64,000 bases of DNA from Candidatus Bathyarchaeota archaeon (GCA_963715865.1 OY970280.1:224001-288000), one strand, 5' to 3'. Positions 13,472-32,849 are shown, numbered from the stretch's first letter. Notes: a model not told the origin generated them from the letters alone. Translations and numbers: made by a program.

Positions 13472-14131
13472 ATGAGTGTCGGCAACGAAATGGGTCAGGG
13501 CATATCCGTAGTAACAACGACTTGGAATGAAAGAGAAAACATTAAGGAATTGATTCTTAAAGTTAGGTCAGCCCTTCGAGATTTCCCGCATGAAATCGTT
13601 GTTGTTGACGATAGCTCTTCGGATGGAACCCTTGATGTTGCTAAGTGCTTTGCAGATTTGGCGGTTGCAAAAGTTCGAGAAGGGCAAACTAAAGGCTTAT
13701 TGTATGGAATGAAACTAACCAAGTTTCCCGTAATAGTAACAATAGATGCCGACTTGGAAAACAATCCTGACTGCATACCTACCCTTATCACAAAACTCAG
13801 CGAATTCGATTTAGTGGTGGCATCGCGAACGGTTCTTCCCAGAATTTCAGAGAGGCTGGCTTCCAAAACGTTAGGTAAAATGTTCGGGGTCTCGGATTTT
13901 TTCTCAAATTTTAGGGTTTACAAGAAAGAAACAATAGCCCATTATTTGAGAGGCGGAGAAACCTTTGGCGGTGAATTATTGGTTATTGCTAAAAAGAATG
14001 GTTTCAAGATTGGCGAAGTAATGTATGAACCGCCGCTTAGGCGCAGCAACCCCCGGATTGGCGGCAAAATTAGAGCTAACTTGAGGATAATCGTTGCTTT
14101 GTTGAAGTGCTTTATTATTTATTTAGCTTAA
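13472..14131 (+). CDS. GT2 glycosyltransferase (Dol-P-Man synthase-like)
   Basis: TWNERENI, VVVDDSSSDGT and DAD motifs. Confidence 0.85.
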   Translation: MSVGNEMGQGISVVTTTWNERENIKELILKVRSALRDFPHEIVVVDDSSSDGTLDVAKCFADLAVAKVREGQTKGLLYGMKLTKFPVIVTIDADLENNPDCIPTLITKLSEFDLVVASRTVLPRISERLASKTLGKMFGVSDFFSNFRVYKKETIAHYLRGGETFGGELLVIAKKNGFKIGEVMYEPPLRRSNPRIGGKIRANLRIIVALLKCFIIYLA

Positions 14132-14226
14132 GGCTTTTAGGCGCCTTAATGGTGACTTGCTTGGTTTTCAGGCTTTTAAGGTTAAGATTATTAGTTGGAG
14201 TTCTTTAATTTTTTAGGGTATAAATT

Positions 14227-16740: not shown

Positions 16741-17032
16741 ATTTAATCTGTCATTACTGGCGCTTTTATAATCATTCCGCTTGCTATGCTACTTTTGATT
16801 AAAGATTTAGCGCTTATCCACTCGGCAAGCGGAAAGCACGATTGACGATTTTAAAATTTACATAACTGCTTTGGAAGGTTCTTACAAAAATGTTGATGGC
16901 GATTTTGACAAAGCGGTTGCTCAGCCTGCAGAAAAAGAAGCTGAAGCCAAAGATAAAGAGGAAGAAGAAAGATCCAAAGCTATAGAGGAATACAGCAAAA
17001 AAGTTAGACCCAGATTCTACGAGTAAAAAAGC

Positions 17033-17419
17033 TTATTTTCGCTCAATCAACTCAATAAGGGTTCCATCTGGATCCTCAATAAAAGCAATCGTTGTACCTG
17101 TTGCAAGCTTGAAAGGTTCATCAGTAATCGTTACATTTTCCTTCCGCAAAGCAGCAATAGTCATTTTCATGTCTGCAACTTCAAACCCTAAATGGTCAAA
17201 CAGGCGCTCTTCATACTCAGGCTGAGTGAATTTCTTTTGGTTACGGTAGAAGGTTAATTCAAGCGTGCAGCCCTTGCCCTGTGGGTCTTGAAGGAAAGCG
17301 ATTTCAGCGTTGTTCTGCTTGATTTCTCGGCGACTCAAAAGGTTTAGGCCTAGAAGTCTGGTGTAAAAGTCAATAGATTTCTCCATGTTGCTTGTGCGAA
17401 TGCTCGCATGAACAAACAT
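17033..17419 (-). CDS. gloA: VOC-family protein, lactoylglutathione lyase-like
   Basis: HASIR, LELT, DHLGF and FIEDPDG..IELIE motifs. Confidence 0.8.
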   Translation of the reverse strand: MFVHASIRTSNMEKSIDFYTRLLGLNLLSRREIKQNNAEIAFLQDPQGKGCTLELTFYRNQKKFTQPEYEERLFDHLGFEVADMKMTIAALRKENVTITDEPFKLATGTTIAFIEDPDGTLIELIERK

Positions 17420-17539
17420 AATGTGTCACTCTAAAAGTTCATTGTGGGGGTTTGTTATAATTCTTTAGCTACAAGCGTCTTCTTGATCGGAACACAGCCA
17501 AAGATTAGAAGAGAGATAGCTTAGTCAAGCGGTTATGCC

Positions 17540-18859
17540 TTAAACCATTTGCTCTTCATTTTCCTGTTTCTTCTTTTTCCTCTTAATCACTAGTGGCTCT
17601 GGTAGCTGAGTACTTTCGGCTTTAGGCTCTTTTTGCTCGTTATCGATTGCTAGGTCTTGCATAGGAAGTTTTTCTTGAATAATACAATCCACTCCCGTGC
17701 AAATTCCAACATATGTATCGTTAATTTGGGATTGCAGTTTCCTTCTTTCCTTCCATAGGCGTGTGTGTGCTTTTTCCTCGCTATCCTGAAGATCAGCCGC
17801 TTTCTGGTAGATGTCGCGCAATTTTTCTACAGTGGAAGCGAATTCTGGGCTTCTTATATAATCGTATAATTTTGATTCTTTGTTTTCCCTGTCCTTTCTG
17901 CTTTCCGATTGCTTACAAATTTCAATAATGGCTCTTCTTATCTGTCTGGCAACATCAACCACTATACATGGGTGGCATAGTAAAATCCCTTCCTTTTCAC
18001 CGAATAAGCCGTTCTTTACATATTTCTTAGGCAGGTTCTTTGAAACTATAATAACATAATCGGTGCCGTGAACATCTTTGTACTTCTTGGCTTTTTCTAC
18101 ATCTTTAGCAGTTACACTTTGGGCTTGTTTGTTATCATAAACGATTGGAGTCTCCAACGATGCATAGGTTGTCCTAATTATCTGTACAATGTCGCCCATG
18201 GCTGTACCTCTTTTCTGCCTAGTGAAGAAGTCTTGGTCAAAGGCCTGTGTAAGGCGAGCGTATAGGTCTATTTCTCCAATTTCACCCATTGCCTCCGATT
18301 GGCTTTGCTGCAATTGCCTCCTAAGCTCGTCCGCATCTCGCTTGAATCGCTCAATTTGGAGTTCCTTTTCTTTTATCTCGTTTCCTAATCGGGTCATTTC
18401 AACTTCAGCGTTAGCCTTGCCCTTGTTAAAAGCAATCTTTTCCAGACGAGTTTGTTCTTTTCTTAAAGCAACTAGCTGTTTTTCCTTATCCTGAAGCTCT
18501 TTTTTGCTATCAGCCTTCAGTTTTTTTCCGAGCGCTGCAAAAGTCCTTTGGTTATCTTTACCAAGCTTGTCATAAGTCTTTTTGAGTGCAGCAAGTTGTT
18601 GCTTGTAACTGCCCTCCATTTCTGTTTTGAGCGTCTTGTTTTGTTCAAGGAAGGAACTTTTCAAGCCAGCGATTTCTTCTTTATGCGACTTGTTTATTTG
18701 CCCAAGTTTTTCTTCAAATTCTAGCTTAGCCTTCTTGTTCTGTTCACCGTATGTTTCTGAAACCTTCTTTTTTAGCTCCTCAATTGCTTGGTAATAATCG
18801 TCACTTTCAAGAGAAGAATGACAAAGAGGACATTTAAACTCTGGAAGATCATTTTTCAA
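17540..18859 (-). CDS. DUF2130-like coiled-coil protein with a nuclease-like C-terminal domain
   Basis: CPLC, a long coiled coil, and GEIGE..L...L..AF..D and GDIVQ..IVYDNK motifs. Confidence 0.7.
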   Translation of the reverse strand: MKNDLPEFKCPLCHSSLESDDYYQAIEELKKKVSETYGEQNKKAKLEFEEKLGQINKSHKEEIAGLKSSFLEQNKTLKTEMEGSYKQQLAALKKTYDKLGKDNQRTFAALGKKLKADSKKELQDKEKQLVALRKEQTRLEKIAFNKGKANAEVEMTRLGNEIKEKELQIERFKRDADELRRQLQQSQSEAMGEIGEIDLYARLTQAFDQDFFTRQKRGTAMGDIVQIIRTTYASLETPIVYDNKQAQSVTAKDVEKAKKYKDVHGTDYVIIVSKNLPKKYVKNGLFGEKEGILLCHPCIVVDVARQIRRAIIEICKQSESRKDRENKESKLYDYIRSPEFASTVEKLRDIYQKAADLQDSEEKAHTRLWKERRKLQSQINDTYVGICTGVDCIIQEKLPMQDLAIDNEQKEPKAESTQLPEPLVIKRKKKKQENEEQMV

Positions 18860-18957
18860 ACCTTAAATCCCCTATAGACTGCAATAATAGGCGATAAGCT
18901 GGAATTATATCGAACTTAACTTAAGCTTTATGAAGCGAACGTATAGCAATTTCTTCA

Positions 18958-19383
18958 CTAAGTAAAAGCTCTGGATTCTTCATCTAAAGTCTTATTCACA
19001 AGCGCGTCTGCCTGCTGAATATACGGATTAGTTCTTGGGGCATTAACAAAACTTATAGTTTTAAAGCGGGCTCTCAACTCTTGCGCTCTTAGCCAAAGCT
19101 TTTGCAACTCAAAATTTTTGACAGCATATTCCCCGTTAAGCTGTTTTGCGACTAATTCGCTGTCAAGGTGGCAAACGACTTCTTCAACTTTAACCGCTAT
19201 GGCAAACTCCAATGCCGCTATCAACGCGTTGTATTCTGACTGGTTATTAGTGTGTATTCCTATGAAGCGTGAATCCGCTTTTACGACTTCGCCTTTTTCT
19301 GTTAATGCCAAATAAGCTATGGCTGCTGGTCCAGGATTTCCTCTTGCTCCACCATCAGAATAAAGCAGTAGTCGCTTGTACAT
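18958..19383 (-). CDS. rnhA: Ribonuclease HI family protein
   Basis: SDGGARGNPG, TNNQSEY, DSELV and ADAL motifs. Confidence 0.92.
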   Translation of the reverse strand: MYKRLLLYSDGGARGNPGPAAIAYLALTEKGEVVKADSRFIGIHTNNQSEYNALIAALEFAIAVKVEEVVCHLDSELVAKQLNGEYAVKNFELQKLWLRAQELRARFKTISFVNAPRTNPYIQQADALVNKTLDEESRAFT

Positions 19384-19539
19384 TGTGTTCTTCGCTTCTT
19401 ATCCATGTAAGCCGTGTTTTATTATTTAAAGCGTTAAGAAGGCAATCGCAAATTTGACTGATTGTTATTGCTGATGTACAATCACATTCGTTTATGAGCT
19501 AAAGAAGCCTTAAATAAAATTAAACATGGGGAAAGTAAC

Positions 19540-19887
19540 TTGACAAGCAGTTTACTGGGAGCAACAAAATTAAATTCGCAAGAACTTCAGTTTGCTCTCT
19601 TAAAACATGACAGGGAATGGAATATTGCTAAAGGCTCTAGAAGAGGAAAATTGGATATTACAGCTGAGATTTTGCTTTTCTGCGAGCAACAAAAAACCAA
19701 AACCAGCATAATGTACAATGCAAACCTAAATTATTCCCAACTCAAAAGCCACATCAACGCTTTAACTTCTCAGGGTTTACTTGAGAAAAAACTGAACAAG
19801 TACGTTACAACCGAAAGAGGTTACCGTTTTCTTGAAATATTCGCTCAACTCAATGATTTACTAGATGAATTTACTAACCTCAAGTGA
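19540..19887 (+). CDS. Winged-helix DNA-binding protein (archaeal HTH_45-like)
   Basis: RRGKLDI..EIL...KTSIMYNANLNY..L...L...GLL...Y..TERG pattern. Confidence 0.8.
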   Translation: MTSSLLGATKLNSQELQFALLKHDREWNIAKGSRRGKLDITAEILLFCEQQKTKTSIMYNANLNYSQLKSHINALTSQGLLEKKLNKYVTTERGYRFLEIFAQLNDLLDEFTNLK

Positions 19888-19943
19888 GTTTCCGATTTTC
19901 CCAAGCAGCCTTCAATTCAGCAACAAAGCCTGCTTCATCTTCT

Positions 19944-20080
19944 GCCAAGCGTCATCAAATACGCAGGATTAGAATACATCACGGCTTTAGCGAAAACCGC
20001 CACACAAATCGCTCCTGTGCCGTTATCGATACATCTTGACCATGGAGAAGATTTCGATACAGCCGCGAAATGCGTTAATG
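19944..20080 (+). repeat. 137-bp direct repeat; internal fba fragment (second copy at 30274-30410)
   Basis: GCCAAGCGTCATCAAATAC...TGCGTTAATG matches the fba gene with 5 mismatches by manual alignment. Confidence 0.95.
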
Positions 20081-20241
20081 TTTCAGATTTGTCAGTAATC
20101 GAAAAGTACTCTACTTCTGAATTCGTCTTTGGAATCATTAGTATGGCGAATAAGTCCGAAGACAAATATCACAAGTACCATGGAAGTGAGATACACAAAG
20201 CAGATATTCTCTTCTAATAATAACCTGTTGATTGAACTGAT

Positions 20242-21369
20242 ATGTCTGGCTCGAGCATCGATGAGGTTTACAAGAGATATGAGTTTAACAAGACTGAACC
20301 CGAGACATTGATGGGGCTGGTCAAGCAAGCTATACAAACAGGTGACGGGGTAAAAGATGAACTGAAGAGATTCAGAGAGATCACAGAAAAAGTGGCAAAG
20401 CTTTTGGAGAAGAAGGGGGTCTTCAGAGTCTTGGACCCCTCGAAAATTGAGAACATAGAGTTCTTCCGAAATGTTTGCGCCGTTGGAATAGACGGAAGTC
20501 TTCAACCAATCGAAGGATTTGGCGGTTATTGGTTCGTACCTACAAGCTGTGCGAGAGTAACATTCGAGAAGGGTCCGAACTCCGCTACCAAAGTCGACGT
20601 CACAGCAAATATCGAGAAAATAAAAGAACATGATTACTATGGCGTTGGCGGTGAAGCCGAACTCCGTATGATGAAATCGGAGACAAAGGCGATAATGGAT
20701 TGGGCAGAGCAGCATGATGCTTCTATTAGAAGTATTATGTTTATCGATGGACCAATCGTTGACCCCCCTAGCGTTGTTGACAAAGATTACGTTAAATACA
20801 GGTGCAAAGCACTGGAAAAATGTATCAAGAAGAACATTCTAGTTATTGGATGTGTAAAAAGGATGAAAGCCAGTATATTGTTGGATTTCATTATGAAAAA
20901 CGTTTTCAAAAACGAAACCAACATGGACCTCAAAGAAAGGTTCGCTTGGGACCTTAATTTGGTAACGGCAATATTTACCAAACTCGTTGTTGAAGGAGCT
21001 AAAGGAGTCTTGAGCACTGTCCCAATCTGTGTCAGCGAGACAGATGCGGCACAAAAAGCGTACCGTGATCAAGGTATTATTGTAAATTCCCTTTATATCC
21101 AGAAAGATCCCACAGGTCGACCAATAAGAGTGGACTTCCCAATTCTGAAGAGTTGCGAGGAAAGTATTGAAGCGATAGGGGAAAAAATCATAAGTACCGT
21201 ATACGCATGGTCGTATCCTGGCATGGACATTCCACTGCCAGTTTTCTTGGCTCATAACAAATGTGAAGTCAGAAAAGGATGTGCTGATGTTTTGTACGCC
21301 GAAATAATTACGCGTTCAAAAAGTAAAGACCCATTTGAAAACATATTAAACGAAAAACTGAAGAGGTGA
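20242..21369 (+). CDS. NurA-family nuclease
   Basis: AVGIDGS, FIDGP, GCVKR and PLPVFLAHN motifs. Confidence 0.85.
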   Translation: MSGSSIDEVYKRYEFNKTEPETLMGLVKQAIQTGDGVKDELKRFREITEKVAKLLEKKGVFRVLDPSKIENIEFFRNVCAVGIDGSLQPIEGFGGYWFVPTSCARVTFEKGPNSATKVDVTANIEKIKEHDYYGVGGEAELRMMKSETKAIMDWAEQHDASIRSIMFIDGPIVDPPSVVDKDYVKYRCKALEKCIKKNILVIGCVKRMKASILLDFIMKNVFKNETNMDLKERFAWDLNLVTAIFTKLVVEGAKGVLSTVPICVSETDAAQKAYRDQGIIVNSLYIQKDPTGRPIRVDFPILKSCEESIEAIGEKIISTVYAWSYPGMDIPLPVFLAHNKCEVRKGCADVLYAEIITRSKSKDPFENILNEKLKR

Positions 21370-21374
21370 GTTGA

Positions 21375-23018
21375 TTGGTCAGTAGAAATCCTATAGGTGT
21401 GGTTCTAACAGGGGCAACAACCCAAAAAGCAGCGTGCCAACTTTTCGAATCTTCAGAAAGAGGCGGTGTCAGAGAAGGGAAATTCCTCCTGATTGAAAGC
21501 ATGCCAGGCAAGCGACAAATAATGGTTCGAGTGGCCTCCATCGTTCCTCAAAACGATTTCTACAGTCCAGGCGATGCTTGGACTGAGGCTCGAAGAAAAC
21601 AAGTAGAGATACCTGGCCAACTCGCAAGACAGTACGAAATTTGCGAGCTCGATTTACTTGCTGAGATGCCAGGGGCCAAGCCAATCGTAGTTCCACCTTT
21701 TCCAAATGACAAGATCTACGAAATGAAATTACCAGAAGAGGCTGAGAACGTATTCGGAGTGTCTAACAAGAGTCAAGGGATAATATGGTATGGAACTATG
21801 ACCGGTTATCAAAACGCGCCCATTCCTCTTAATGTCGAAAGCATACCAATGCACATTGGAATTTTTGGAACTACAGGTAGTGGAAAATCATATGATACTG
21901 GAGCTTTGATAGAAAAGCTTGTTACGATCTATGATAAAGAGGACAGAATTCTTTCATTTCCGATTCTTGTAATTGACGCTAACGGCGACTATCTTGATTA
22001 TGTCAAGTTCTTTGAAGATCACGAGAGGTTCGGTGCGGCATCAGCAGTCACGAGGTATGTCTTTCCCGGTTCTCCAGAGCTAAGTAAGATAAATGTAAGG
22101 CCTATAGCCATAGATTTGAATCTCATGTCGAAACGGGAGATAGCTGAAGCTATTAATCTCTACTATTCGGGAGGAGAGAAAACGGAGCTCCAAGTGTCTG
22201 GGTTGGAGAAACTGTTTGCTCATATGGAAGATACATCTCTAATATCGGAGGGAAACTACCAGAGCATCTTTACTGACGATGATAGGTTTGAAGATGCTAA
22301 AGGGGCTCTTGCTAACCTGAGTCTTCATTCCGGAACTGTGGCTGCAGTTCTGCGTGCTCTTGAAAAATTCAAGGAAGTTGAAGACAGTTATAGTCTTCTG
22401 TCAGAGGCGCTAAAGCTTGATAGAAACTTCGTGGATACCCTTACAAAGAATCGTGAAATTGCCATAATAGACTTTTCTGCTGCAGGGGCTCCGGGAGTTG
22501 ATCCCCGACTTAAACAATTCGTGATGTCTTATTTGGCTTCCATTCTTTTTAGGGTATTCACGGAGTACAAGATGGAAGGTCAAGAACGGTATATGCTATT
22601 CATAATAGAGGAGGCTCAGAACTATTGTCCCAATCTTTCGACCTACAACATCGGATATAGTCTTGCTCGCGAGAAACTGGCAGCTATAGCCACGCAGGGC
22701 CGTAAGTTCGGGCTCAGTCTCTGCCTCATTTCCCAAAGACCATCTTTTGTTGATCAGGTCGTTTTGTCAATGTGTAACAGTTTCTTTCTGCACAGAATCT
22801 CGCCAGAGGATGTCTCATTCGTGAAGAGGGTTACAGGAGGCTTACCTTTATCGTTGGAGCGGAGGCTGACTATTCTCGCCAATGGTGAGCTCATAGTGAG
22901 CGGGCAGATGCTGACACTGCCATTTCCAATGCTTATTAAAGTCCCTCCGAGAGAAGTCCCGCAGACTACTGGCAAAACCGACGTTTTAGGTGCTTTGAGG
23001 AGTCTGGCTACAAAATGA
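21375..23018 (+). CDS. HerA-like ATPase/DNA translocase
   Basis: N-terminal HAS-barrel-like region, HIGIFGTTGSGKS, FIIEEAQNY and QGRKFG....ISQRPS. Confidence 0.92.
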   Translation: MVSRNPIGVVLTGATTQKAACQLFESSERGGVREGKFLLIESMPGKRQIMVRVASIVPQNDFYSPGDAWTEARRKQVEIPGQLARQYEICELDLLAEMPGAKPIVVPPFPNDKIYEMKLPEEAENVFGVSNKSQGIIWYGTMTGYQNAPIPLNVESIPMHIGIFGTTGSGKSYDTGALIEKLVTIYDKEDRILSFPILVIDANGDYLDYVKFFEDHERFGAASAVTRYVFPGSPELSKINVRPIAIDLNLMSKREIAEAINLYYSGGEKTELQVSGLEKLFAHMEDTSLISEGNYQSIFTDDDRFEDAKGALANLSLHSGTVAAVLRALEKFKEVEDSYSLLSEALKLDRNFVDTLTKNREIAIIDFSAAGAPGVDPRLKQFVMSYLASILFRVFTEYKMEGQERYMLFIIEEAQNYCPNLSTYNIGYSLAREKLAAIATQGRKFGLSLCLISQRPSFVDQVVLSMCNSFFLHRISPEDVSFVKRVTGGLPLSLERRLTILANGELIVSGQMLTLPFPMLIKVPPREVPQTTGKTDVLGALRSLATK

Positions 23019-26000
23019 GTGAGAAAAGTGATAAAATCGGTTCCATGTATTCCAGACTCCCAACGGGCCCTGGAGTTCCCACCGCAAGTCTCACAGGCTT
23101 TTCGTTCGCGATTATTGAAAGCAGAAAACCTGTGGAGAAACAGCTACGAGATTTCATGACTTTTTGCAGAAGAGATGCGCTATCGGTTAACGTTAAGATT
23201 CTGAAAGCTGAATGGGGCGAAGGAAAAACTGATGCATACGAACGGTATATTCATCCAGAAGCCGAGACGAGCGGAGATGCTTGCTATTTCGCATCGACAT
23301 CAACTATTGCAGATAGAATAAACAGATTTCACGATATTTTCTCAACAACGAGCTATGTCCCAAGCTCAAAATTCCTTGCATCCGTTTTCGTATCGATAAT
23401 TGACGAGGCGACTCATCAAAAGATCGGCGTTAAGGGTTTTCCAAATGTTTTAGATTTCCAGAATGATCCACTAAAATTCATAGAAACAACTCTAGAGAAC
23501 CATCGAAGAATTGGCTGCAAAAAGATATTCGTCTTCATTGACGAATTTGAAGAACTGCTTATTCAAGATAGCAAAGTCCAAAAAGAAATAATTTCAGGGT
23601 TGAAGGAGCTCATTAATGGACAGTTGGGTCTTGTCCATGAAGGCGGGTCTAGTCAGGGAATGCTCCATTTCTTCATAGCTTGTACGCCATATGCGTACAT
23701 TCGAATCATGGAAGACGTCGAGCTTGCCCAGATTACTGGCTCAGTCAAGTCTCGGTTGACAACACTGACCTTACCTGAAGTTACTCATAAAGAGGCGTTG
23801 CAGTTCCTAATAGACTTAACCAGATACAGTTATGGTGACATTCTGCCCGAAGCCTTTCCCTTCCGTAGTCTGGGTCCTTTGAACGGCATATACGCTATTT
23901 CCCACGGTAACCTAAGAGAAATGATCAAACTCTTTGTCAAGCTTATGTCAACTGCGGCAGATGAGAAAACCAAACAGTTTCATCTGATTGATGCAAATCA
24001 CTTTGTGTCATCATTAAGAGATGAGGATATTTCAGTTTATGGAGCCAGCGGAAAAGCCATAGATGATGAGTTACTAGATAAGGTAAATGTTAATCTGAAG
24101 AGAATCAGCAGAGGAGAAGAGTGCTTAGCCGTTTTTAACCTGCTAATGGGTGAATACCAGCCCTTCAACATCGACGAGATGGGCAAAAGATTGGGGCTCC
24201 CGAAAGACGAAATTCATCAACTTGTCTCCGCTGTAAACACGGAACTGCAAAAGATGGGGATAGACAAGGCAATTTCGGCACTTTTTCCTCTTAATGAGGG
24301 AAAGACGTTCGAGACAGTCAAGAATCGACTTCAGATTGTTCAAGACCGTATAATCATCGGAAACGCGAAGATCCCAATTAAGAAATTCAAGGAGAAGCTT
24401 TTTGCCTACACATTTCATGCAGATGGAAAACTTTCAGAGACTCTTCTGCTTCCCAAGGAGCCAAGAGATCTTGAATTGCTGTTTGAGAATATCACCGAAG
24501 AAGAGACCGGAGAACTCACGTCAGAAGAGGCTGAAAAACTGCATCATGCAATAAAGGAAGACTTTGATCAAGCGGCGGCAAAACGGTATTACGTATTATC
24601 TCAAGACATAATTAATCAAGTTTTTCCGTCTCCCTTGTGGTTACTGATGGACTTCGTAAAAGACAGAGCAAAAAGGATGGATCTATGGCGAAAGGCGAGT
24701 AAAGAATATTTTGAGTCTGTCAAGGAATTAAGAACTGGACTGCTAAGTCTAATTGAACATAACGGTATCGGCAAGTTCGAATCGAAAGAGACCAATGGAG
24801 GGAAATACTACAAATTTGATTATGAACTTCAAGACAAGGCAATTCCAATTTCTGCATACGCATATGTTAGCGCTGGCAACATTACTGAACAAGATATTGA
24901 AGAGATACGTGATGACGTGAAGAGCCGTAGACCCAATCTCGTTCTTCTGGTCTACAGTGGTGAAATTGATGCAAATTTGCCAACAGAAATCGGGGGCATC
25001 GAAACACCTATTCTCCAGATTCATTTGAGAAAAATTAGAGCCCTTCAACTAATAGTTGCTCAACTAGCTCGCCCTCTCACGGAAATCGACCCGAAAATCT
25101 TGGAAAAGAGGTTTGCTGAAGTATCCGATGAGGCTGAAATTCAGAAGAGATTCGCTGAGTGGTACAATAAATGCACGAGTGAAGGAATCGTTGTTGATGA
25201 TCCTTACACGAATTACGCTGATAGCGGTGGCAAGCTCGCTGGAATATTAAAATACTACATCAATTTCTTGGGTGAAAGAAAAACATCTTCAGAAGTCTTT
25301 GAAGATTACGAAAAAACTCTTAAGAACATCAAATTCTTCGGTGACAAGGAAGTTCCTTTTGCCCCCGTTGATATAGAAACTACAGGCGAATTTACAAAGT
25401 TCGAGGATGAACTGGTTAGAAACGGCTTTCTATCCAAGCAGAGTGCGGGTACAGTTTGCGTTGAGAATACACCCGTTGAACTGCGGATCACGTCAATTAC
25501 CAAGAGATATCCAAAGGTGGAAGTCAAGCAACTTAAGCAGTTTTTCATAAATGCTGCCCAAGCTGAAAGCGTACTTGAAAGAGTTTACCTTCCGATCTTG
25601 ATTCACAAAGGTGTCCTTACTATTGATGAGGACAACATAATTAAGAAAGAACCACAGCTGCTGCGAAAAGAATTGGAGAACGATTTTGCTACATATGAGG
25701 CAAATGCGAGAAGCAAGTCTAACAGCTGGAAAAGCTTCGCGCATATTTGTGTATCAAAGGGGCGGAAAGAAGAAAAGGGAATGATAATCATTGACCTTAG
25801 CTACGTAGACCAGTTGCTCAGATACAAGAAGAAAGAAATTGACGATGAACATGACGAGAACCTCTTGCTTCAAAAGATTCAACTATTCAAACTTATCATG
25901 AACTATTATTATGAAAAACTGGAACCCAAGATAGACATTGCGATAGCGGCTGCGAGTCAGCTAAAGAGAGAAACACACTCTGAAACAGAATCATTGAAAA

Positions 26001-27298
26001 ACGCGCTGAACAAGGTACTAGAAACCTACAACTCTTATTGTCAAGACAAGACCTATTCTTTGGAAGAGATTGAAGAATACAGCAAAATTTTGGGACACAA
26101 AAAGGACGTGGATGCCACATTTGACCAAACATTTTCCATTGATGAGCTAAATCGATACCGCAACCAAGTTAAGTGGGAGGAATATCATTTCGGTCGAGAC
26201 GCGAGAGAAGCCCACTACTTCAACCTGAAGTTTGCAATGCTTGAGAAATCCCGCCATGAACTGACTAGCGCCATTGGTGCAATCAGCACTGTAATTACAG
26301 AAGCTCAAGATCTGATTTCCAGAACAGAGGAACTAAAAAAGCAAATACACAAAGAATCATCAGTGTACAAGATACCCGCCAACTACAAAATCAGCACGAA
26401 AATTCTTGATGAACTGCATAAATACCATGCTAAACCGGCACACGCTCAGTCAGCATTGCCAAGGATTCGGGTTGGCATGATGAAAGAGTTTTTCAGTTCG
26501 CTCGAGAAGCAGTTGGGTCGAGATCAGTCTCGAGTTCAAGGTGTACTCGAGAAAGCTGAAGAGGTTAGAAAATCTGAGAAAGCCTTTCTTGAAAGCGAAT
26601 TACAGGCGTGCGTAGAAAACGCGCGAAAGTTCTTCCAGATTCCTTACGAAGAAAAATTCAAGAATGTGGAAGATTCGCTGAAATTGGCCACTGAAGAGTA
26701 CACAGAGTTGTGCGCGCAGACCGCAGAGAAATCACTAAAATCCCTTGACGATCTTTACCAGCTAGCTAACTCTGCAGGAAAGAAGTTTAAGGATTCAATA
26801 AACGAAAAAATGATTCAAGCTGAGAATGCTATTGGCCAAGTTTTTGACGAAGCAGAGAGAGGCTTGGAGAAGGTTCGGAACGAAGTTGACAGTTTCGCCA
26901 GAGTTCTCAAAAATGCATTTGGAGAAAAAGTGGCGCCTGTTTGCGAAAAATACGTTGAACATTTTGAAGATGAAATTAGGATCACACAAGGGGCGATACA
27001 AACTGTAAAACAAGGTCATGAGACAGGCTATACCTGGGCTGAGCGACAAAAGGATTTGGGCGAAGTGCGTGAGAAGTTCTTCAAAGATCTAAAACCTATA
27101 ATGCCCCCTCAAGAAGGAGCTATACTCTTGGAGATTGTGCGTATAATAAGTGAAAATCAATCTCAATGGATGAATGTGCAAGATCTTGTCTCCCAGTTAA
27201 AAGTACGACTTAGTAAATCCGACGAGGAAATCGAACAGACCTTAAAGAGACTGGTTGATTTGAATTTGGTAAGAACAGGTGCCTCGTTGCCGATATGA
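23015..27298 (+). CDS. Large P-loop (AAA+-like) ATPase with coiled coil and C-terminal winged helix
   Basis: Walker A AEWGEGKT and Walker B VFIDEFEE; helical C-terminal half; ATGA overlap with herA. Confidence 0.8.
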   Translation: MSEKSDKIGSMYSRLPTGPGVPTASLTGFSFAIIESRKPVEKQLRDFMTFCRRDALSVNVKILKAEWGEGKTDAYERYIHPEAETSGDACYFASTSTIADRINRFHDIFSTTSYVPSSKFLASVFVSIIDEATHQKIGVKGFPNVLDFQNDPLKFIETTLENHRRIGCKKIFVFIDEFEELLIQDSKVQKEIISGLKELINGQLGLVHEGGSSQGMLHFFIACTPYAYIRIMEDVELAQITGSVKSRLTTLTLPEVTHKEALQFLIDLTRYSYGDILPEAFPFRSLGPLNGIYAISHGNLREMIKLFVKLMSTAADEKTKQFHLIDANHFVSSLRDEDISVYGASGKAIDDELLDKVNVNLKRISRGEECLAVFNLLMGEYQPFNIDEMGKRLGLPKDEIHQLVSAVNTELQKMGIDKAISALFPLNEGKTFETVKNRLQIVQDRIIIGNAKIPIKKFKEKLFAYTFHADGKLSETLLLPKEPRDLELLFENITEEETGELTSEEAEKLHHAIKEDFDQAAAKRYYVLSQDIINQVFPSPLWLLMDFVKDRAKRMDLWRKASKEYFESVKELRTGLLSLIEHNGIGKFESKETNGGKYYKFDYELQDKAIPISAYAYVSAGNITEQDIEEIRDDVKSRRPNLVLLVYSGEIDANLPTEIGGIETPILQIHLRKIRALQLIVAQLARPLTEIDPKILEKRFAEVSDEAEIQKRFAEWYNKCTSEGIVVDDPYTNYADSGGKLAGILKYYINFLGERKTSSEVFEDYEKTLKNIKFFGDKEVPFAPVDIETTGEFTKFEDELVRNGFLSKQSAGTVCVENTPVELRITSITKRYPKVEVKQLKQFFINAAQAESVLERVYLPILIHKGVLTIDEDNIIKKEPQLLRKELENDFATYEANARSKSNSWKSFAHICVSKGRKEEKGMIIIDLSYVDQLLRYKKKEIDDEHDENLLLQKIQLFKLIMNYYYEKLEPKIDIAIAAASQLKRETHSETESLKNALNKVLETYNSYCQDKTYSLEEIEEYSKILGHKKDVDATFDQTFSIDELNRYRNQVKWEEYHFGRDAREAHYFNLKFAMLEKSRHELTSAIGAISTVITEAQDLISRTEELKKQIHKESSVYKIPANYKISTKILDELHKYHAKPAHAQSALPRIRVGMMKEFFSSLEKQLGRDQSRVQGVLEKAEEVRKSEKAFLESELQACVENARKFFQIPYEEKFKNVEDSLKLATEEYTELCAQTAEKSLKSLDDLYQLANSAGKKFKDSINEKMIQAENAIGQVFDEAERGLEKVRNEVDSFARVLKNAFGEKVAPVCEKYVEHFEDEIRITQGAIQTVKQGHETGYTWAERQKDLGEVREKFFKDLKPIMPPQEGAILLEIVRIISENQSQWMNVQDLVSQLKVRLSKSDEEIEQTLKRLVDLNLVRTGASLPI

Positions 27299-27448
27299 TT
27301 CATCGACCTCTTTGTGTTTCTTGAATCTTTGGCACAGGGTGTGAATCCGTGTTAGACGAAGGGCAAAGAGATAAGCTTATAGGAACATACTTGGTAATCC
27401 AGGAATAATGTTTCTTGGGTCATAAGGAAAAGTAAAAAGGGGACAAAT

Positions 27449-28225
27449 ATGAATAAAGCAGAGCTTTACGAGGCAATTTCGGCGAGAAAAGGGAATGGCG
27501 TGCAGATAAGACAGGAATTATGCTTTTATGACCCTGAAGATGTCTATAGAGGCTTAACATCCAACAACAAAATAATGAAATGGTTGAAATTCGTTTCAAA
27601 CCATTACTTACCTCCTTCGGACAAGAAAGTGCTTCTAATTTATCCGTGTTCGACCGAAAAACCATATCACGCATCACGATCATACAAGCGCTTGTTCAAG
27701 ACGTTAAATAACCTTGGAGACGAAAGACGGAGAATTCATGTGGTAACAATATCCGAACCGTTTGGTCTTGTACCCGAAGAGTTTTACGGCATAGAGAATC
27801 CGTGGCATGATTGGAAGAATGAATGGTATGACTGCCCGGGTCTCTTTGAATGGTGGTGTAGCAAGTATAAGCAAGCATACTCGCAAGAATTTCTCGACAA
27901 GAGCATAGAATGTCTGTCTGATTATGTTGCTAGATTTCTAACCAAGGTTCAGAAAAACAATTGCTATGAGGAAAAGATTGCATTTGTACGATCTTACACT
28001 GCACAGCTAAAAACCAAAAAAGATCATACTCACCGAAGAATTATTGAGCGGGCTGCTGCAATCTCAGATGTCAAGGTGAAAATCCTTCCCTCCAAAGATT
28101 TGGTATCAAAAATCGTCAGAAGCAATGGAAGTATGGCTTGGGACATGTATGGAGTATCCCATCCTTTGGCTCAAGAGTATCTTCTGAGATACTTGAAGGG
28201 GATCCTACATATTGAAACCAACTGA
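27449..28225 (+). CDS. Stand-alone DUF5591 / archaeosine synthase (ArcS)-like domain protein
   Basis: LLIYPCSTEKPYHASRSY, HVVTISEPFGLVPEE and YD motifs. Confidence 0.75.
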   Translation: MNKAELYEAISARKGNGVQIRQELCFYDPEDVYRGLTSNNKIMKWLKFVSNHYLPPSDKKVLLIYPCSTEKPYHASRSYKRLFKTLNNLGDERRRIHVVTISEPFGLVPEEFYGIENPWHDWKNEWYDCPGLFEWWCSKYKQAYSQEFLDKSIECLSDYVARFLTKVQKNNCYEEKIAFVRSYTAQLKTKKDHTHRRIIERAAAISDVKVKILPSKDLVSKIVRSNGSMAWDMYGVSHPLAQEYLLRYLKGILHIETN

Positions 28226-29237
28226 GACACCATTTCTTTTGCTGAGCCAACTTGTAAACGGTTCTCCAAAGCCATGGAAGCATTTCAAAATAGACGGGCT
28301 AATGGTTAATGCTTACGAAATTCTGCAGAAAAATAAAACTCACGAAACGGTCTGTAGAGAAGGGATTCATGAATATTTAGGATACCATGGGCGCGTAGGA
28401 ATGGACTCTGGTGGATTTCTATTTATGCGAAAGAAATCGTTGGGTGTCCATCCCCAACAAATCTTGGATCTATATGAATCTAGCAAGCCTAATTTGGCAG
28501 TGGTATTGGACCATCCGCTTGAACCTTGCCTATCTATGTCACAGAGAAAGAAGCGCCAACTGAAGACCTTAGAAAACACGATGTATATGCTAAGTTCCAG
28601 AACAAGTGAAAATCCGTTGCTTATGCCAGTTATTCATGGGTATTCTTTGCAGACAGTGAGATGGTACATAAGGGCACTTGCCAAAATAGGCGATTTTGAA
28701 ACGTATGGAATTGGAAGTCTGGTACCATCGGTATTTAATGCCAAGGGGATTGGAGGCATCTACAACGTTTTGAGAATTGTCTCCTATGTCAGAAAACTTC
28801 TCCCAAATAAGAAAATCCATGTCTTTGGAATTGGGAGTACATTAACAATGCATTTGATGTTTTATGTTGGTGCAAATTCCGTCGACAGCTCCGGTTGGAG
28901 AACAAAAGCAGCGTTCGGCGCTATTCAACTTCCTGGTATCGGTGACAGATACATAACCACGAGAGAAAGAAAAAAGAACTACAGGGATCTTTCTGAGGCT
29001 GATAAGGAGATTTTGGCTCAATGCCGTTGCCCTGTGTGTGAGAAAAAAGGATTGGAAAAACTGAGGACAAGCTTTGAGGATAGAGCCTTGCATAACTCGT
29101 GGGTTTTTCAGAAGGAAATCGAGAAAATTCGATTATTAACGAGAGAGGAGGCATATGAGAGTTATGTTGAGGAAGTTCTCACAAAGTCTTCCTTCTGTAG
29201 AGCCTTTGCTTTTGCCAAGCAAATCAAGAATTCCTAG
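28212..29237 (+). CDS. Queuine/archaeosine tRNA-guanine transglycosylase (TGT)-fold enzyme without PUA domain
   Basis: MDSGGF, VLDHP, IGSLVP, HVFG, SVDSSGW and the Zn site CRCPVC...HN. Confidence 0.88.
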   Translation: MKPTETPFLLLSQLVNGSPKPWKHFKIDGLMVNAYEILQKNKTHETVCREGIHEYLGYHGRVGMDSGGFLFMRKKSLGVHPQQILDLYESSKPNLAVVLDHPLEPCLSMSQRKKRQLKTLENTMYMLSSRTSENPLLMPVIHGYSLQTVRWYIRALAKIGDFETYGIGSLVPSVFNAKGIGGIYNVLRIVSYVRKLLPNKKIHVFGIGSTLTMHLMFYVGANSVDSSGWRTKAAFGAIQLPGIGDRYITTRERKKNYRDLSEADKEILAQCRCPVCEKKGLEKLRTSFEDRALHNSWVFQKEIEKIRLLTREEAYESYVEEVLTKSSFCRAFAFAKQIKNS

Positions 29238-29243
29238 AAATTT

Positions 29244-29648
29244 TCATTGCAGTATTTTCACCAATAATGAAGGGATAACATCTTTGAAAACAGAACCACC
29301 GACAACAAAAAAAGTCTTGGACTTAACTAAATTCTTGAAAGTATGTTGCCACGCTCTACGTGGAGTTTCAGTCAGCACTATAAGAGCAACAGCCTTGTTT
29401 TGCAATACATAATCTACTCCTCTTCGTTCCCATTTCTCATAGGAGTTACTCGTAAGGTTATGACCCAGTTCGGACTCTATCAGCAGCCCTCTTTCATTTG
29501 CTGGATTGATGATGTAGATGTCAGGACCGGTTTTGTGCTCTCTCGCTAAGTTGATTTCTTTTATTATATAGCCCAGCGACTCCGCCACGGCATAAGTATA
29601 ATCTAACGAGAAGTCATGAAGCGTTTGATGAGTATACGTATCGCTCAT
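29244..29648 (-). CDS. Small PD-(D/E)XK-like protein
   Basis: GPDIYI...LLIESE; convergent with the tgt-like gene. Confidence 0.5.
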   Translation of the reverse strand: MSDTYTHQTLHDFSLDYTYAVAESLGYIIKEINLAREHKTGPDIYIINPANERGLLIESELGHNLTSNSYEKWERRGVDYVLQNKAVALIVLTETPRRAWQHTFKNLVKSKTFFVVGGSVFKDVIPSLLVKILQ

Positions 29649-29698: not shown

Positions 29699-29974
29699 TT
29701 AATCAATGGCTGAACTATTTTGTCGATCCTGCGAACCTTCATGTGGAAAACTATAGGCCCTTGGTAATTCAACTATGAGAACGATTTTCTCTGAAAATGT
29801 TGCTTCGTCCTCTGCCAAGCGTTTTTTAACTTGCCTCCAAACCGCTGGGCAATCCGTGTAATCTGAACCTATAATGCTGCGAATGACATTGTCAACTTCT
29901 TTTCTGTTTTGGCGTGTTACCTCTATTCCTGCTTTCTTAAAAGTCGCTTCAAGATGACGGAAATAACAAGTCAC
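29699..29974 (-). CDS. Hypothetical small protein, possibly with a foreign C-terminal tail
   Basis: MTCYFRHL...CPAVWRQVKKR reads as a compact protein, and the tail runs into the island end. Confidence 0.6.
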   Translation of the reverse strand: MTCYFRHLEATFKKAGIEVTRQNRKEVDNVIRSIIGSDYTDCPAVWRQVKKRLAEDEATFSEKIVLIVELPRAYSFPHEGSQDRQNSSAID

Positions 29975-30127: not shown

Positions 30128-31045
30128 GTGCTTGTAACAAACAAGGATTTAATGGTTCCAGCCAGAAAAAACGGTTACGCCGTTGCAGCATTCAACATCC
30201 AAAACATGGAAAGCATGAAAGCCGTTGTGGAAGCAGCAACCGAAGAAAAATCCCCAGCCATCATGCAAATAACGCCAAGCGTCATCAAATACGCAGGATT
30301 AGAATACATCACGACTTTAGCGAAAACCGCCACACAAATCGCTCCTGTGCCAATAGCGATACATCTTGACCACGGAGAAGATTTCGATACAGCCGCGAAA
30401 TGCGTTAATGCCGGGTTTAGTTCAGTGATGATTGATGGCTCGTTTTTAAGTTTCAACGAAAACGTCGCTGTCACTAAACGAGTAGTAGATGTTGCTCATC
30501 CAAAGGGCGTTTCTGTTGAAGCTGAACTGGGCAAACTTGCGGGTGTCGAAGAACGCAGCGTGGAAGAAAGAGAAGCCATACTAACTGACCCGCAAAGTGC
30601 AGTAGAATTCGTGGAGAAAACCGGCGTTGACACACTTGCCGTAGCAATCGGCACATCGCATGGGGCTTACAAGTTTAAAAGCCAAGCAAAAATAGACCTT
30701 GAACGCTTAAAAATCATCAGCCAAAAAATCAGCATCCCACTTGTACTGCACGGCGCATCAAGCGTGCCTGCATGGATAGTTGAGAAAGCAGTCAAATACG
30801 GGGCAACACTAGATGGAGCAAAAGGCGTATCAGAAGACCAATTGCAACAAGCGATTAAGCTGGGCATTGCAAAAATCAACATTGACACTGACTTGCGCTT
30901 AGCCTTCACCGCAACAGTACGCGAAGTCTTAACCAACTCGCCAAAGGAATTTGACCCAAGAAAAATCCTTGGTCCAGCAAAAGACGCTATGAAAGAAGTG
31001 GCTAAGGGCAAAATGCGCCTGTTCGGAAGTTCAGGAAAAGCCTAA
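30128..31045 (+). CDS. fba: Class II fructose-1,6-bisphosphate aldolase
   Basis: HLDHG, SVMIDGS, EAELG, GTSHGAYK, LVLHGAS and KINIDT motifs. Confidence 0.95.
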   Translation: MLVTNKDLMVPARKNGYAVAAFNIQNMESMKAVVEAATEEKSPAIMQITPSVIKYAGLEYITTLAKTATQIAPVPIAIHLDHGEDFDTAAKCVNAGFSSVMIDGSFLSFNENVAVTKRVVDVAHPKGVSVEAELGKLAGVEERSVEEREAILTDPQSAVEFVEKTGVDTLAVAIGTSHGAYKFKSQAKIDLERLKIISQKISIPLVLHGASSVPAWIVEKAVKYGATLDGAKGVSEDQLQQAIKLGIAKINIDTDLRLAFTATVREVLTNSPKEFDPRKILGPAKDAMKEVAKGKMRLFGSSGKA

Positions 31046-32151: not shown

Positions 32152-32484
32152 ATGAATACTGAAAGCAGTCTCAAGGAAATTGAGAGCATGCAAAGGTCAC
32201 TGGAAAATTTAAGGCAGGAGCTTCAAATCTTGAAGCCTACGCTTAAGAAACGCTTTAAAGTTGAAACCATAGACATTTTCGGCTCGTATGCCCGTGGAGA
32301 ACAGACAGAAAAAAGCGACTTGGACCTCCTCGTAACGTGGTCTATTCCAGAAGACTTATTCTTGATATACGATTTACGGCAGTACCTAAAAAGAAAACTC
32401 CATTTGAAAGTGGATATTATAGCTAAAGAATTCCTCAATAAACATATAAAAGAACAGGTAATAGAGGAAGCTGTTCCAGTGTGA
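32152..32484 (+). CDS. Minimal nucleotidyltransferase (MNT) antitoxin
   Basis: FGSYARGEQTEKSDLD matches GSx10DxD. Confidence 0.9.
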   Translation: MNTESSLKEIESMQRSLENLRQELQILKPTLKKRFKVETIDIFGSYARGEQTEKSDLDLLVTWSIPEDLFLIYDLRQYLKRKLHLKVDIIAKEFLNKHIKEQVIEEAVPV

Positions 32485-32849
32485 AGAGAGATCATCTAGA
32501 AAGAGACCCCAAACTCTACTTATCAGAAATCACAGAGTTTATCCAAAGGATTAAAGAATACACCCAAGGGATGACCTACGAGGATTTCCTTAAAAACAGA
32601 CAGACAATTGACGCTGTAGATACAAACGTGCGAAATATAGGTGAGGCAGTTCGTGTCCTCTCAAAAAACAGACAAATCCGCAATCTATTTTACCACTACC
32701 ACATCCCATTCAAAAAACTCTCGGGCATGAGAACAGACCTTACCCACGAATATTTTGCCATGAGCACTAGGGCATTGTGGATTACTGCTACACGCGACTT
32801 AATCAACCTCAAGCTTCAATTCGAAAAAGTCTTACAAGAACTGCAATAA
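32481..32849 (+). CDS. HEPN/DUF86 RNase toxin (HepT-like)
   Basis: YL..I...I, IGEA and R-TDLT-H (Rx4H); overlaps MNT by 4 bp. Confidence 0.88.
   Translation: MKRDHLERDPKLYLSEITEFIQRIKEYTQGMTYEDFLKNRQTIDAVDTNVRNIGEAVRVLSKNRQIRNLFYHYHIPFKKLSGMRTDLTHEYFAMSTRALWITATRDLINLKLQFEKVLQELQ

Follow-up and report, generated by a model that had tools for sequence, protein, structure and literature searches.

A five-gene archaeal cassette of NurA, HerA, a BrxC-like ATPase and a DpdA-like transglycosylase: a candidate DNA-marking defence system

A 10-kb inserted island in the genome of a Candidatus Bathyarchaeota archaeon carries five core genes, which encode NurA, HerA, a 1427-residue ATPase, an ArcS-core enzyme and a DpdA-like transglycosylase (TGT). 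It lies within a stretch of 64,000 nt (GCA_963715865.1 OY970280.1:224001-288000), here called the window, whose positions serve as coordinates throughout. On balance, we favour the view that this locus is a defence system resembling restriction-modification, which moves horizontally and labels its own DNA with a 7-deazaguanine. This view builds on the gene families and their conserved catalytic residues, on strict co-occurrence and patchy distribution, and on the insertion of the island into a genome that holds housekeeping paralogues.

A wider proposal, to which we give somewhat less than even chances, is that archaea would here have their first chromosomal immune system based on 7-deazaguanine marking of DNA, and NurA its first role in defence, in a system exchanged among at least nine archaeal lineages and several bacterial phyla. 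A mark made from salvaged preQ0 would be read by a BrxC-like ORC ATPase that loads HerA-NurA on unmarked DNA, and the swap to DUF6884 in bacteria would imply a superfamily of nitrile-modifying enzymes comprising DUF5591, DUF6884 and DpdC.

Gene order, co-occurrence and island insertion

The gene of the NurA-family nuclease (375 aa, 20242..21369, plus strand) ends with a TGA at 21367-21369 and is separated by a 5-nt gap (GTTGA) from the TTG start, at 21375, of the gene for a HerA/FtsK-type hexameric ATPase (547 aa, 21375..23018, plus strand). The end of herA is at the same time the start of the gene for the signature 1427-aa ATPase (23015..27298, plus strand), through an ATGA overlap at 23015-23018. 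After a gap of 150 nt follows the gene of a free-standing, ArcS2-like DUF5591 protein that corresponds to the ArcS catalytic core (258 aa, 27449..28225, plus strand), and this gene overlaps the TGT gene (341 aa, 28212..29237, plus strand) by 14 nt. A sixth gene (134 aa, 29244..29648, minus strand) is convergent with the TGT gene and lies 6 nt beyond its stop. A first-pass annotation of the sequence had described these six open reading frames (ORFs) with their tight coupling, overlap and convergence, and an ORF check confirmed all six at the same coordinates together with the junctions. Pfam, NCBIfam and PADLOC name three of the six products, namely HerA (Pfam DUF87, 4e-25), the DUF5591 protein (Pfam DUF5591, 8e-14) and the TGT (Pfam TGT, 1.6e-21), in agreement with the earlier family calls, while the giant ATPase and the sixth protein have no match in any of the three collections.

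The same genes recur together in other genomes. A word-indexed search of 5.8 billion proteins gave 22 full-length ATPase relatives, from 81% down to 26% identical, and a scan of 185,579 species genomes for the ATPase gave 26 loci; neighbourhoods were read from precomputed Pfam tables and by jackhmmer searches of the six window proteins against all locus ORFs. A search with the TGT gave 293 clusters (among the matches listed, the best 120 of 293, identity is at least 51%), from which three long contigs were sampled. NurA, HerA, the ATPase and a TGT lacking the PUA domain are all present in the window, and likewise in each of 24 further non-redundant loci whose flanks are long enough (the ATPase search led to 22 of these loci and the TGT search to 3), and the shorter contigs are consistent with this gene set as far as they extend. 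The DUF5591 gene is clear in 21 loci, and weak and short in one more. Archaeal carriers belong to Bathyarchaeia, Nitrosopumilus, Methanomethylicia, Methanodesulfokora (Korarchaeia), Asgardarchaeia, Aenigmatarchaeota, Archaeoglobales, Hydrothermarchaeum and Thermoplasmata, and bacterial carriers to Bacillota, Chloroflexota and two Bacteroidota metagenome-assembled genomes (MAGs), with partial loci in Poribacteria and an actinobacterium; most carriers of the system are MAGs.

The arrangement of the genes is not fixed. The DUF5591-TGT pair may follow the other genes, on either strand, or precede them in divergent orientation; in the archaeal locus L110 NurA comes last of the three, in the order HerA-ATPase-NurA, and in L078 the ATPase is split in two. 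Since the modification pair changes place and strand and the order in L110 differs, shared selection explains the linkage better than shared ancestry of a single operon, and the persistence of the linkage through such rearrangement, in archaea and bacteria alike, argues strongly for a functional unit. The co-occurrence that the first-pass annotation had made decisive for its proposal is therefore found, for the five core genes, across archaeal and some bacterial phyla.

Within its own lineage the cassette is patchy. Of the genomes sampled, none of 10 from the same genus and none of 25 from the same family has the ATPase, and across the phylum 11 of 401 have it, while three relatives show the empty site, with RNase H, an HTH gene, the small ORF and the class II aldolase gene fba side by side and no cassette. 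The cassette is bracketed by a direct repeat of 137 nt, 96% identical, at 19944-20080 and 30274-30410 (both plus strand). The repeat bounds proposed earlier are thus real, and they can now be identified as an internal piece of fba: the right copy forms part of the fba gene itself, which is intact (30128-31045), and at the left boundary the repeat is a scar that corresponds to fba nt 147-283 with a 13-nt piece in front. The left junction (19931-19952) matches 29801-29822 in 20 of 22 bases and is composite, since 13 nt resembling the small ORF at 29699-29974 are joined to the fba fragment through a shared GCCAAGCGT, a microhomology of 9 nt. This scar implies a duplicated target that was partly deleted later. 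Simple Campbell-type integration into fba was rejected as an explanation, because the fba that contains the right repeat is intact and syntenic, and the left repeat is a fragment that has been rearranged.

Several related loci have integrases or serine recombinases nearby (L011, L018, L026, L030, L031 and L108), and others have defence genes as neighbours, with GmrSD at L078 and a set of pAgo and DUF1156-DUF499-SNF2 at L077. In the latter, a Methanomethylicia locus (L077:1-1154, 13520-21056), the system lies between the Piwi (pAgo) gene and the genes for a DUF1156 methylase, a DUF499 ATPase and an SNF2 helicase, in a dense defence island.

The insertion of the cassette and the integrases near several loci would also suit a selfish module of a mobile element, in which the TGT pair shields the element's DNA from host restriction and the ATPase, HerA and NurA serve its replication, transfer or processing. 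HerA/FtsK ATPases also pump DNA in conjugation-like systems (the window HerA scores 72 bits against NCBIfam CedD, under the cut-off), and ORC/Cdc6 proteins, which the giant ATPase resembles, are replication initiators. However, the window cassette has no integrase, capsid, replication or transfer genes, and the same five genes are found in unrelated flanks, as is typical of defence cassettes. A viral or plasmid origin was rejected as well, the ATPase being absent from the 2.9 million viral contigs and 72,556 plasmids searched. We regard the selfish-module explanation as quite unlikely.

A DpdA-like transglycosylase and its partner enzymes

In addition to its Pfam match, the TGT is recognised by the PADLOC DpdA model (1.8e-14, 51 bits) and scores 96 bits against ArcTGT and 53 bits against DpdA (NF041059) in NCBIfam, both far under the equivalog cut-offs (200 for DpdA). 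Among the structures of the Protein Data Bank (PDB) it is closest to P. horikoshii ArcTGT, over the catalytic barrel (residues 44-328, 5e-20), and the DpdA structure 7ui4 matches with an E-value of only 0.047. The protein consists of the catalytic TIM barrel alone and stops before the tRNA-binding C1, C2 and PUA domains. Its best viral relatives are the DpdAs of the Sulfolobus viruses STSV1, STSV2 and STSV4 (30% identity, 8e-17). A maximum-likelihood tree groups 24 housekeeping ArcTGTs from the same phylum in a single clade, apart from the TGTs of the system (SH-aLRT 95-96), which fall on the opposite side together with viral DpdAs, whose long branches leave their exact placement unsure.

The residues D65-S-G-G, D100, H142 and D225 are invariant in 19 TGT orthologues, the zinc site CxCxxC...H is kept in most of them, and a family-specific motif, W-R-x-K-A-x-x-G, follows the nucleophile. 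D65, D100, H142 and D225 correspond to Asp95, Asp130, His181 and Asp256 of Salmonella Montevideo DpdA, an enzyme that depends on Asp95 and Asp256 to exchange guanine in DNA (PMC10164549). The barrel, the three aspartates, the histidine and the zinc site of a DpdA are all found here, and C-terminal tRNA-binding domains are lacking. These comparisons support a DpdA-like protein that is not a tRNA enzyme, with predicted activity as a DNA-guanine transglycosylase.

The second enzyme has no domain other than DUF5591 and matches NCBIfam ArcS at 2e-14, under the cut-off. Its motif, PCSTEKPYHASRSY, agrees with the ArcS2 motif PC-x3-KPY-x2-S-x2-H (PMC10516641) at all positions but the last, where Y stands for H, and C67, K71, P72, S76, E103 and P104 are invariant in 16 orthologues. 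A free-standing DUF5591 domain encoded beside a DpdA-type gene, the arrangement by which ArcS2 is recognised, occurs in 21 loci. The window protein (P0004) has no match in the PDB or in the phage collection. A complex prediction for the TGT and the DUF5591 protein (score 0.24, mark 0.32) was not used as evidence.

Experiments on viral enzymes suggest what such a pair may do. The DpdA2 of Vibrio phage nt-1 alone produced dPreQ0 in plasmid DNA in E. coli, and together with ArcS2 it produced dG+ (PMC10516641). We infer that here too the substrate is DNA and the mark a 7-deazaguanine: the DpdA-like enzyme would replace guanine in the cell's own DNA with preQ0, in this host salvaged through QueT, and the ArcS2-like CxxxK enzyme would turn the nitrile, by then part of the DNA, into a derivative of archaeosine type, for example dG+ or a lysine adduct.

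Every variant of the system pairs the TGT with a CxxxK enzyme, either DUF5591 or, in four loci, DUF6884. The bacterial loci have no DUF5591 and carry instead a DUF6884 protein of 156-167 aa (3e-8, 4.5e-6 and 7e-4), and the archaeal locus L110 holds both. The DUF6884 genes (L017:14187-14657, L019:14174-14668, L034:11519-12022 and L110:15756-16211) encode CSKxK and LSDKYG motifs, and the window DUF5591 protein shares this pattern (PCSTEK, ISEPFG). According to the Pfam curators, DUF6884 is a CxxxK/LSAxxG family with a DNA-binding cleft and distant kinship to YaaA/PF03883 (PMC11701544); PF03883 is the family of DpdC, which turns dPreQ0 into dADG in DNA (summarised in PMC12839542). A comparison of the DUF5591 family with the small bacterial proteins by hhalign was not significant (E 0.16), so the kinship of DUF5591, DUF6884 and DpdC is a lead that rests on shared motifs and on the Pfam note on DUF6884. 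Because bacterial versions swap DUF5591 for DUF6884 and L110 has both, DUF6884 is suggested to act, like DpdC, on DNA-bound preQ0, and the product of the DUF6884 variants may be other than archaeosine-type. The system in this way suggests DpdC-like chemistry on DNA by both DUF6884 and DUF5591.

The host genome (G000) is a single contig of 2.35 Mb, 97.9% complete, and belongs to the phylum Thermoproteota, as shown by Ignicoccus pacificus being among its same-phylum genomes. Among the sequencing runs listed, three DNA runs had small shares and there was no RNA run, which has no bearing on expression. The genome yielded neither QueD/PTPS nor YhhQ, and in place of QueC only PP-loop fragments, while QueT is clear (1e-23, C1:2143374-2143811). 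Because the host lacks QueD and a true QueC and possesses QueT, 7-deazaguanine is taken to be salvaged and not made, and the host appears to depend on scavenged precursors even for its tRNA. The first-pass annotation had the precursor drawn from the host's own pathway; this part of the proposal does not hold, and uptake by the QueT transporter takes its place. QueT is also found beside the system in L008 and L010 (L010 has a QueC fragment as well), and an ECF S-component-like gene in L005, L011 and L014.

These transporter genes bear on another explanation, in which the TGT is itself the weapon. The TGT and its CxxxK partner would attack invading DNA, by excising guanine or a viral 7-deazaguanine or by forcing in a bulky base, and the resulting abasic or covalent lesions would be processed by HerA-NurA under the ORC-like ATPase. 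TGT chemistry does proceed through base excision and a covalent enzyme-nucleic acid intermediate (PMC10164549), a host system against such DNA is conceivable as archaeal viruses carry DpdA and ArcS2, and the co-occurrence of the genes fits equally well. However, in five loci a gene for QueT or an ECF S-component adjoins the system, an indication that a precursor base is consumed and not only excised, and a TGT that is always paired with an enzyme acting on the preQ0 nitrile fits the formation of a product. Moreover, all DpdAs tested so far insert preQ0 (PMC10516641). The weapon explanation seems unlikely to us.

For tRNA, the host has a separate 541-aa TGT (G000:C1:1151485-1153050; L001:880-2505, minus strand) that combines a full TGT barrel (1e-83) with a C-terminal DUF5591 domain, and its relatives across the phylum are single TGT frames of about 490-590 aa. 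The functions of ArcTGT and ArcS may be merged in this one protein.

The NurA-HerA-ATPase arm

The NurA protein of the window has no Pfam hit of its own, but among 23 aligned orthologues, with 26-63% identity to it, 22 are recognised by Pfam NurA (PF09376; best 8e-13), and a language-model (atlas) search places the window protein in NurA clusters with a score of 0.97, which bears out the original NurA call. D84-G, E147, D169-G, D237 and D298 are invariant, S86 and D174 nearly so. A NurA profile found nothing in the PDB. The neighbouring HerA matches PADLOC HerA (5e-35) and keeps its Walker A (G165-S172) and Walker B (E412-E413) motifs. Its best PDB matches are an antiphage HerA (8xau, 8e-20) and Sulfolobus HerA (4d2i, 2e-18), and it is about equally near to antiphage HerAs and to the Sulfolobus protein.

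NurA and HerA are known as the end-resection repair enzymes of archaea (PMC3326311). As in that complex, both families are adjacent and tightly coupled here and retain nuclease and ATPase motifs. In contrast to it, the cassette pair is unlinked to mre11-rad50, is additional to a housekeeping copy, has a patchy, island-borne distribution and is always accompanied by the 1400-aa ATPase and the TGT. The absence of both Mre11 and Rad50, claimed in the first-pass annotation, was borne out, with no match to either among the six cassette products or in the related loci. A second NurA-HerA pair is encoded elsewhere in the host genome (G000:C1:721785-723673, its NurA at 723278-723673), and the cassette NurA is a paralogue of this housekeeping NurA. 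Given the missing Mre11/Rad50 link and this second pair, a housekeeping HerA-NurA repair operon was rejected.

Because the host has separate housekeeping NurA-HerA and TGT-DUF5591 genes, the cassette genes are extra copies. All four families hold housekeeping roles in archaea, and one could accordingly see in the locus a chance adjacency of NurA-HerA for double-strand break repair and split archaeosine genes for tRNA modification. However, separate housekeeping copies of both sets exist in this genome, the cassette TGT has no tRNA-binding domains, and the set is missing from relatives and conserved as a unit across phyla, bacteria included, which makes chance adjacency so improbable as to be almost negligible.

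The 'giant ATPase' of the first-pass annotation is present and conserved, and it can now be described more closely as an ORC/Cdc6-type, BrxC-like protein. An exhaustive profile search of 1.84 billion representative proteins returned 260 hits, nearly all of about 1400 aa, and the protein would represent a new signature family of about 260 representative clusters in that set. The AlphaFold model of residues 1-470 (pLDDT 88) matches archaeal ORC2, Orc1 and Cdc6 (2e-8) and also TnsC by Foldseek, and Cdc6 and BrxC/D clusters of the ESM Atlas (TM 0.56-0.60). Walker A (EWGEGKTD) and Walker B (FxDEFEE) are invariant. In the model of residues 471-1427 (pLDDT 84.6) there follow, in order, an alpha/beta domain (~586-685), winged helices, some 380 residues of long helices and a terminal winged helix. 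BrxC has the domain order AAA+, wHTH, alpha+beta, wHTH and coiled coil (PMC12839542), and judged from the models the 1427-aa ATPase is a protein with an ORC/Cdc6-type AAA+ head and a BrxC-like domain order. The domain at ~586-685 has weak matches to the restriction-endonuclease (REase) fold (AspBHI, MspJI, Mrr_cat and NA-iREase1 clusters; Foldseek E 6e-3, low atlas TM), and the D...ExK catalytic motif is not conserved in the alignment; this REase-like middle domain is a lead, and it is probably catalytically inactive.

Profile searches gave no assignment for the ATPase. A Pfam scan of the protein and 21 relatives returned no family hit and only scattered weak ones (nSTAND_NTPase5, wHTH families and one Mrr_cat), none of the BrxC, DUF6079 and DUF499 profiles matches, and the ATPase profile found only helical-bundle noise in the PDB. 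The ATPase falls to 26-32% identity where the TGT keeps 54-57%. Such faster divergence is expected for a sensor in an arms race, and the unevenness fits a conserved enzymology combined with a fast-evolving sensor.

For the restriction side of the system, we infer a coupling to the modification pair and a defence phenotype. The BrxC-like ATPase would bind DNA and read the mark with its wHTH domains, its inactive REase-like domain and its coiled-coil arms. It would then engage the HerA hexamer, and HerA would feed unmarked DNA to a NurA dimer for degradation.

The mark might instead serve regulation, stability or repair signalling, with no restriction involved, while NurA-HerA and the ATPase process the sites of exchange. 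NurA and HerA act in archaeal end resection, as noted above, and base exchange in double-stranded DNA may require strand opening and repair, just as bacterial DpdA requires the ATPase DpdB (PMC10164549). However, neither a patchy, island-like distribution with defence-island neighbours nor the quick divergence of the ATPase is expected for a regulatory or repair function, and marking without restriction appears very unlikely.

Several observations nevertheless weigh against the self-marking defence system that we favour. The requirement of bacterial DpdA for DpdB is one of them, as no DpdB is encoded at the cassette. The zinc-site cysteines are lost in two TGT orthologues (L005 and L014). The host is unable to make preQ0, and salvage might be too scarce for genome-wide protection. 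The trio of NurA, HerA and ATPase could also restrict DNA without reading any mark. Finally, distant relatives of the ATPase (~24% identical, ~1400 aa) stand alone in Ignicoccus and other Desulfurococcales (L032:9744-13916; L033:9980-14167, Ignicoccus pacificus CP006868; also G118, G177 and G253). They are found without NurA, HerA or TGT, beside DUF359 and an Rpb7-like rpoE in the same order in two Desulfurococcales, and look like a vertically inherited chromosomal paralogue. Because of these stand-alone relatives, the ATPase family is not tied exclusively to defence and is older and broader than the system.

Relation to known systems and neighbouring genes

No PADLOC system model covers the unit, and PADLOC has none for the ATPase, NurA or the DUF5591 protein. 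In the literature searched (full text; subscription journals lay outside the coverage), no paper describes a system in which NurA or HerA is combined with TGT, DpdA or archaeosine. The earlier suggestions that the locus is unclassified by PADLOC and that no named system has this composition are in line with these searches, and we therefore class it as modification-based immunity from an unreported set of parts. To our knowledge, 7-deazaguanine in cellular DNA has so far been tied to the bacterial Dpd island, and in archaea to viruses only.

The Dpd system (DpdA-K; dPreQ0/dADG) shares with the cassette a TGT paralogue whose catalytic residues agree, a further enzyme that works on the preQ0 nitrile, ATPase and nuclease genes, residence on a mobile island and the presumed logic of marking own and restricting unmarked DNA. 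It differs in several respects: the window lacks DpdB, DpdC and DpdD-K, its TGT resembles the archaeal TGT barrel more closely, DUF5591 or DUF6884 takes the place of DUF328 as the nitrile enzyme, and the restriction arm consists of NurA, HerA and the BrxC-like ATPase. Membership in Dpd was rejected on the DpdA equivalog score (53 against 200 bits) and on the absence of hits to DpdB (ParB-like), DpdC (DUF328) and DpdD-K among the six products and in the related loci. The viral pairs of DpdA and ArcS2 (STSV1/STSV2 and Vibrio phage nt-1) likewise combine a TGT lacking PUA with an overlapping free-standing DUF5591 gene, the TGTs being 30% identical to ours. However, they serve anti-restriction, without NurA, HerA or the ATPase, and in STSV2 the order is reversed, with the TGT before DUF5591.

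Joining HerA to an ORC-like ATPase and a nuclease has been described as a theme among anti-invader 'capture' systems (PMC12839542). Among these, BREX-Related Capture (BRC; PMC12839542) also uses a HerA/FtsK translocase and a BrxC-like ORC/Cdc6 ATPase, includes in a subset a TGT proposed to mark own DNA, and is sparsely distributed in archaea and bacteria. The components around which BRC is organised, however, are PglZ, DUF6079, a STAND NTPase, DUF4007 and GNAT; the cassette has none of them, and NurA, ArcS and archaeosine are not mentioned in the BRC paper (PMC12839542). BRC membership was rejected since PglZ, DUF6079, the STAND NTPase and DUF4007 are found in neither the window nor the related loci. 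Membership in BREX was rejected too: neither the ATPase nor its 21 relatives have a Pfam hit, PglZ and a methyltransferase are absent, and only fold and domain order are BrxC-like. In DndFGH/HerA-anchored capture and in antiphage HerA systems (SIR2-HerA, DUF4297-HerA), HerA similarly serves as motor or scaffold for an effector with an ORC-like ATPase, and the cassette HerA matches the PADLOC antiphage HerA models. The effector here is NurA, and the proposed mark is a 7-deazaguanine and not phosphorothioate; the main text of PMC10853773 names neither NurA nor TGT nor deazaguanine.

If our interpretation is true, archaeosine chemistry would have been recruited from tRNA to DNA for the discrimination of self and non-self, and NurA-HerA would have a second, immune role. 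Immunity would then hinge, unusually, on preQ0 scavenged from the environment. The cassette of five genes is compact and could be transferred to a model host.

Additional genes accompany the core at some loci. The sixth gene of the window is present and convergent, as the first-pass annotation had it, but its assignment to the system did not stand: a homologue is found in L010 only, there too convergent with the TGT gene, and the gene is accessory and outside the conserved core. Atlas leads to PDDEXK_3, PDDEXK_11 and MunI clusters (scores 0.91-0.93) make it possibly PD-(D/E)XK-like, which stays a lead. In L109 (7368-9135) an ABC-type ATPase (AAA_15/AAA_21, 406 aa) and a PIN-like protein are encoded between the giant ATPase and the TGT pair and may be an added effector module. 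Two Bathyarchaeia-type loci, L008 (14430-15701) and L011 (14356-15699), have proteins of 423 and 447 aa without a Pfam family after the giant ATPase, which may represent another accessory component.

In the window itself, a 439-aa DUF2130 protein and an RNase H-like (RVT_3) gene (17540-18859) lie directly left of the insertion site. On the other side, a toxin-antitoxin pair of the MNT/HepT type (nucleotidyltransferase and HEPN RNase; 32152-32849) is located just downstream of fba, before leuS.

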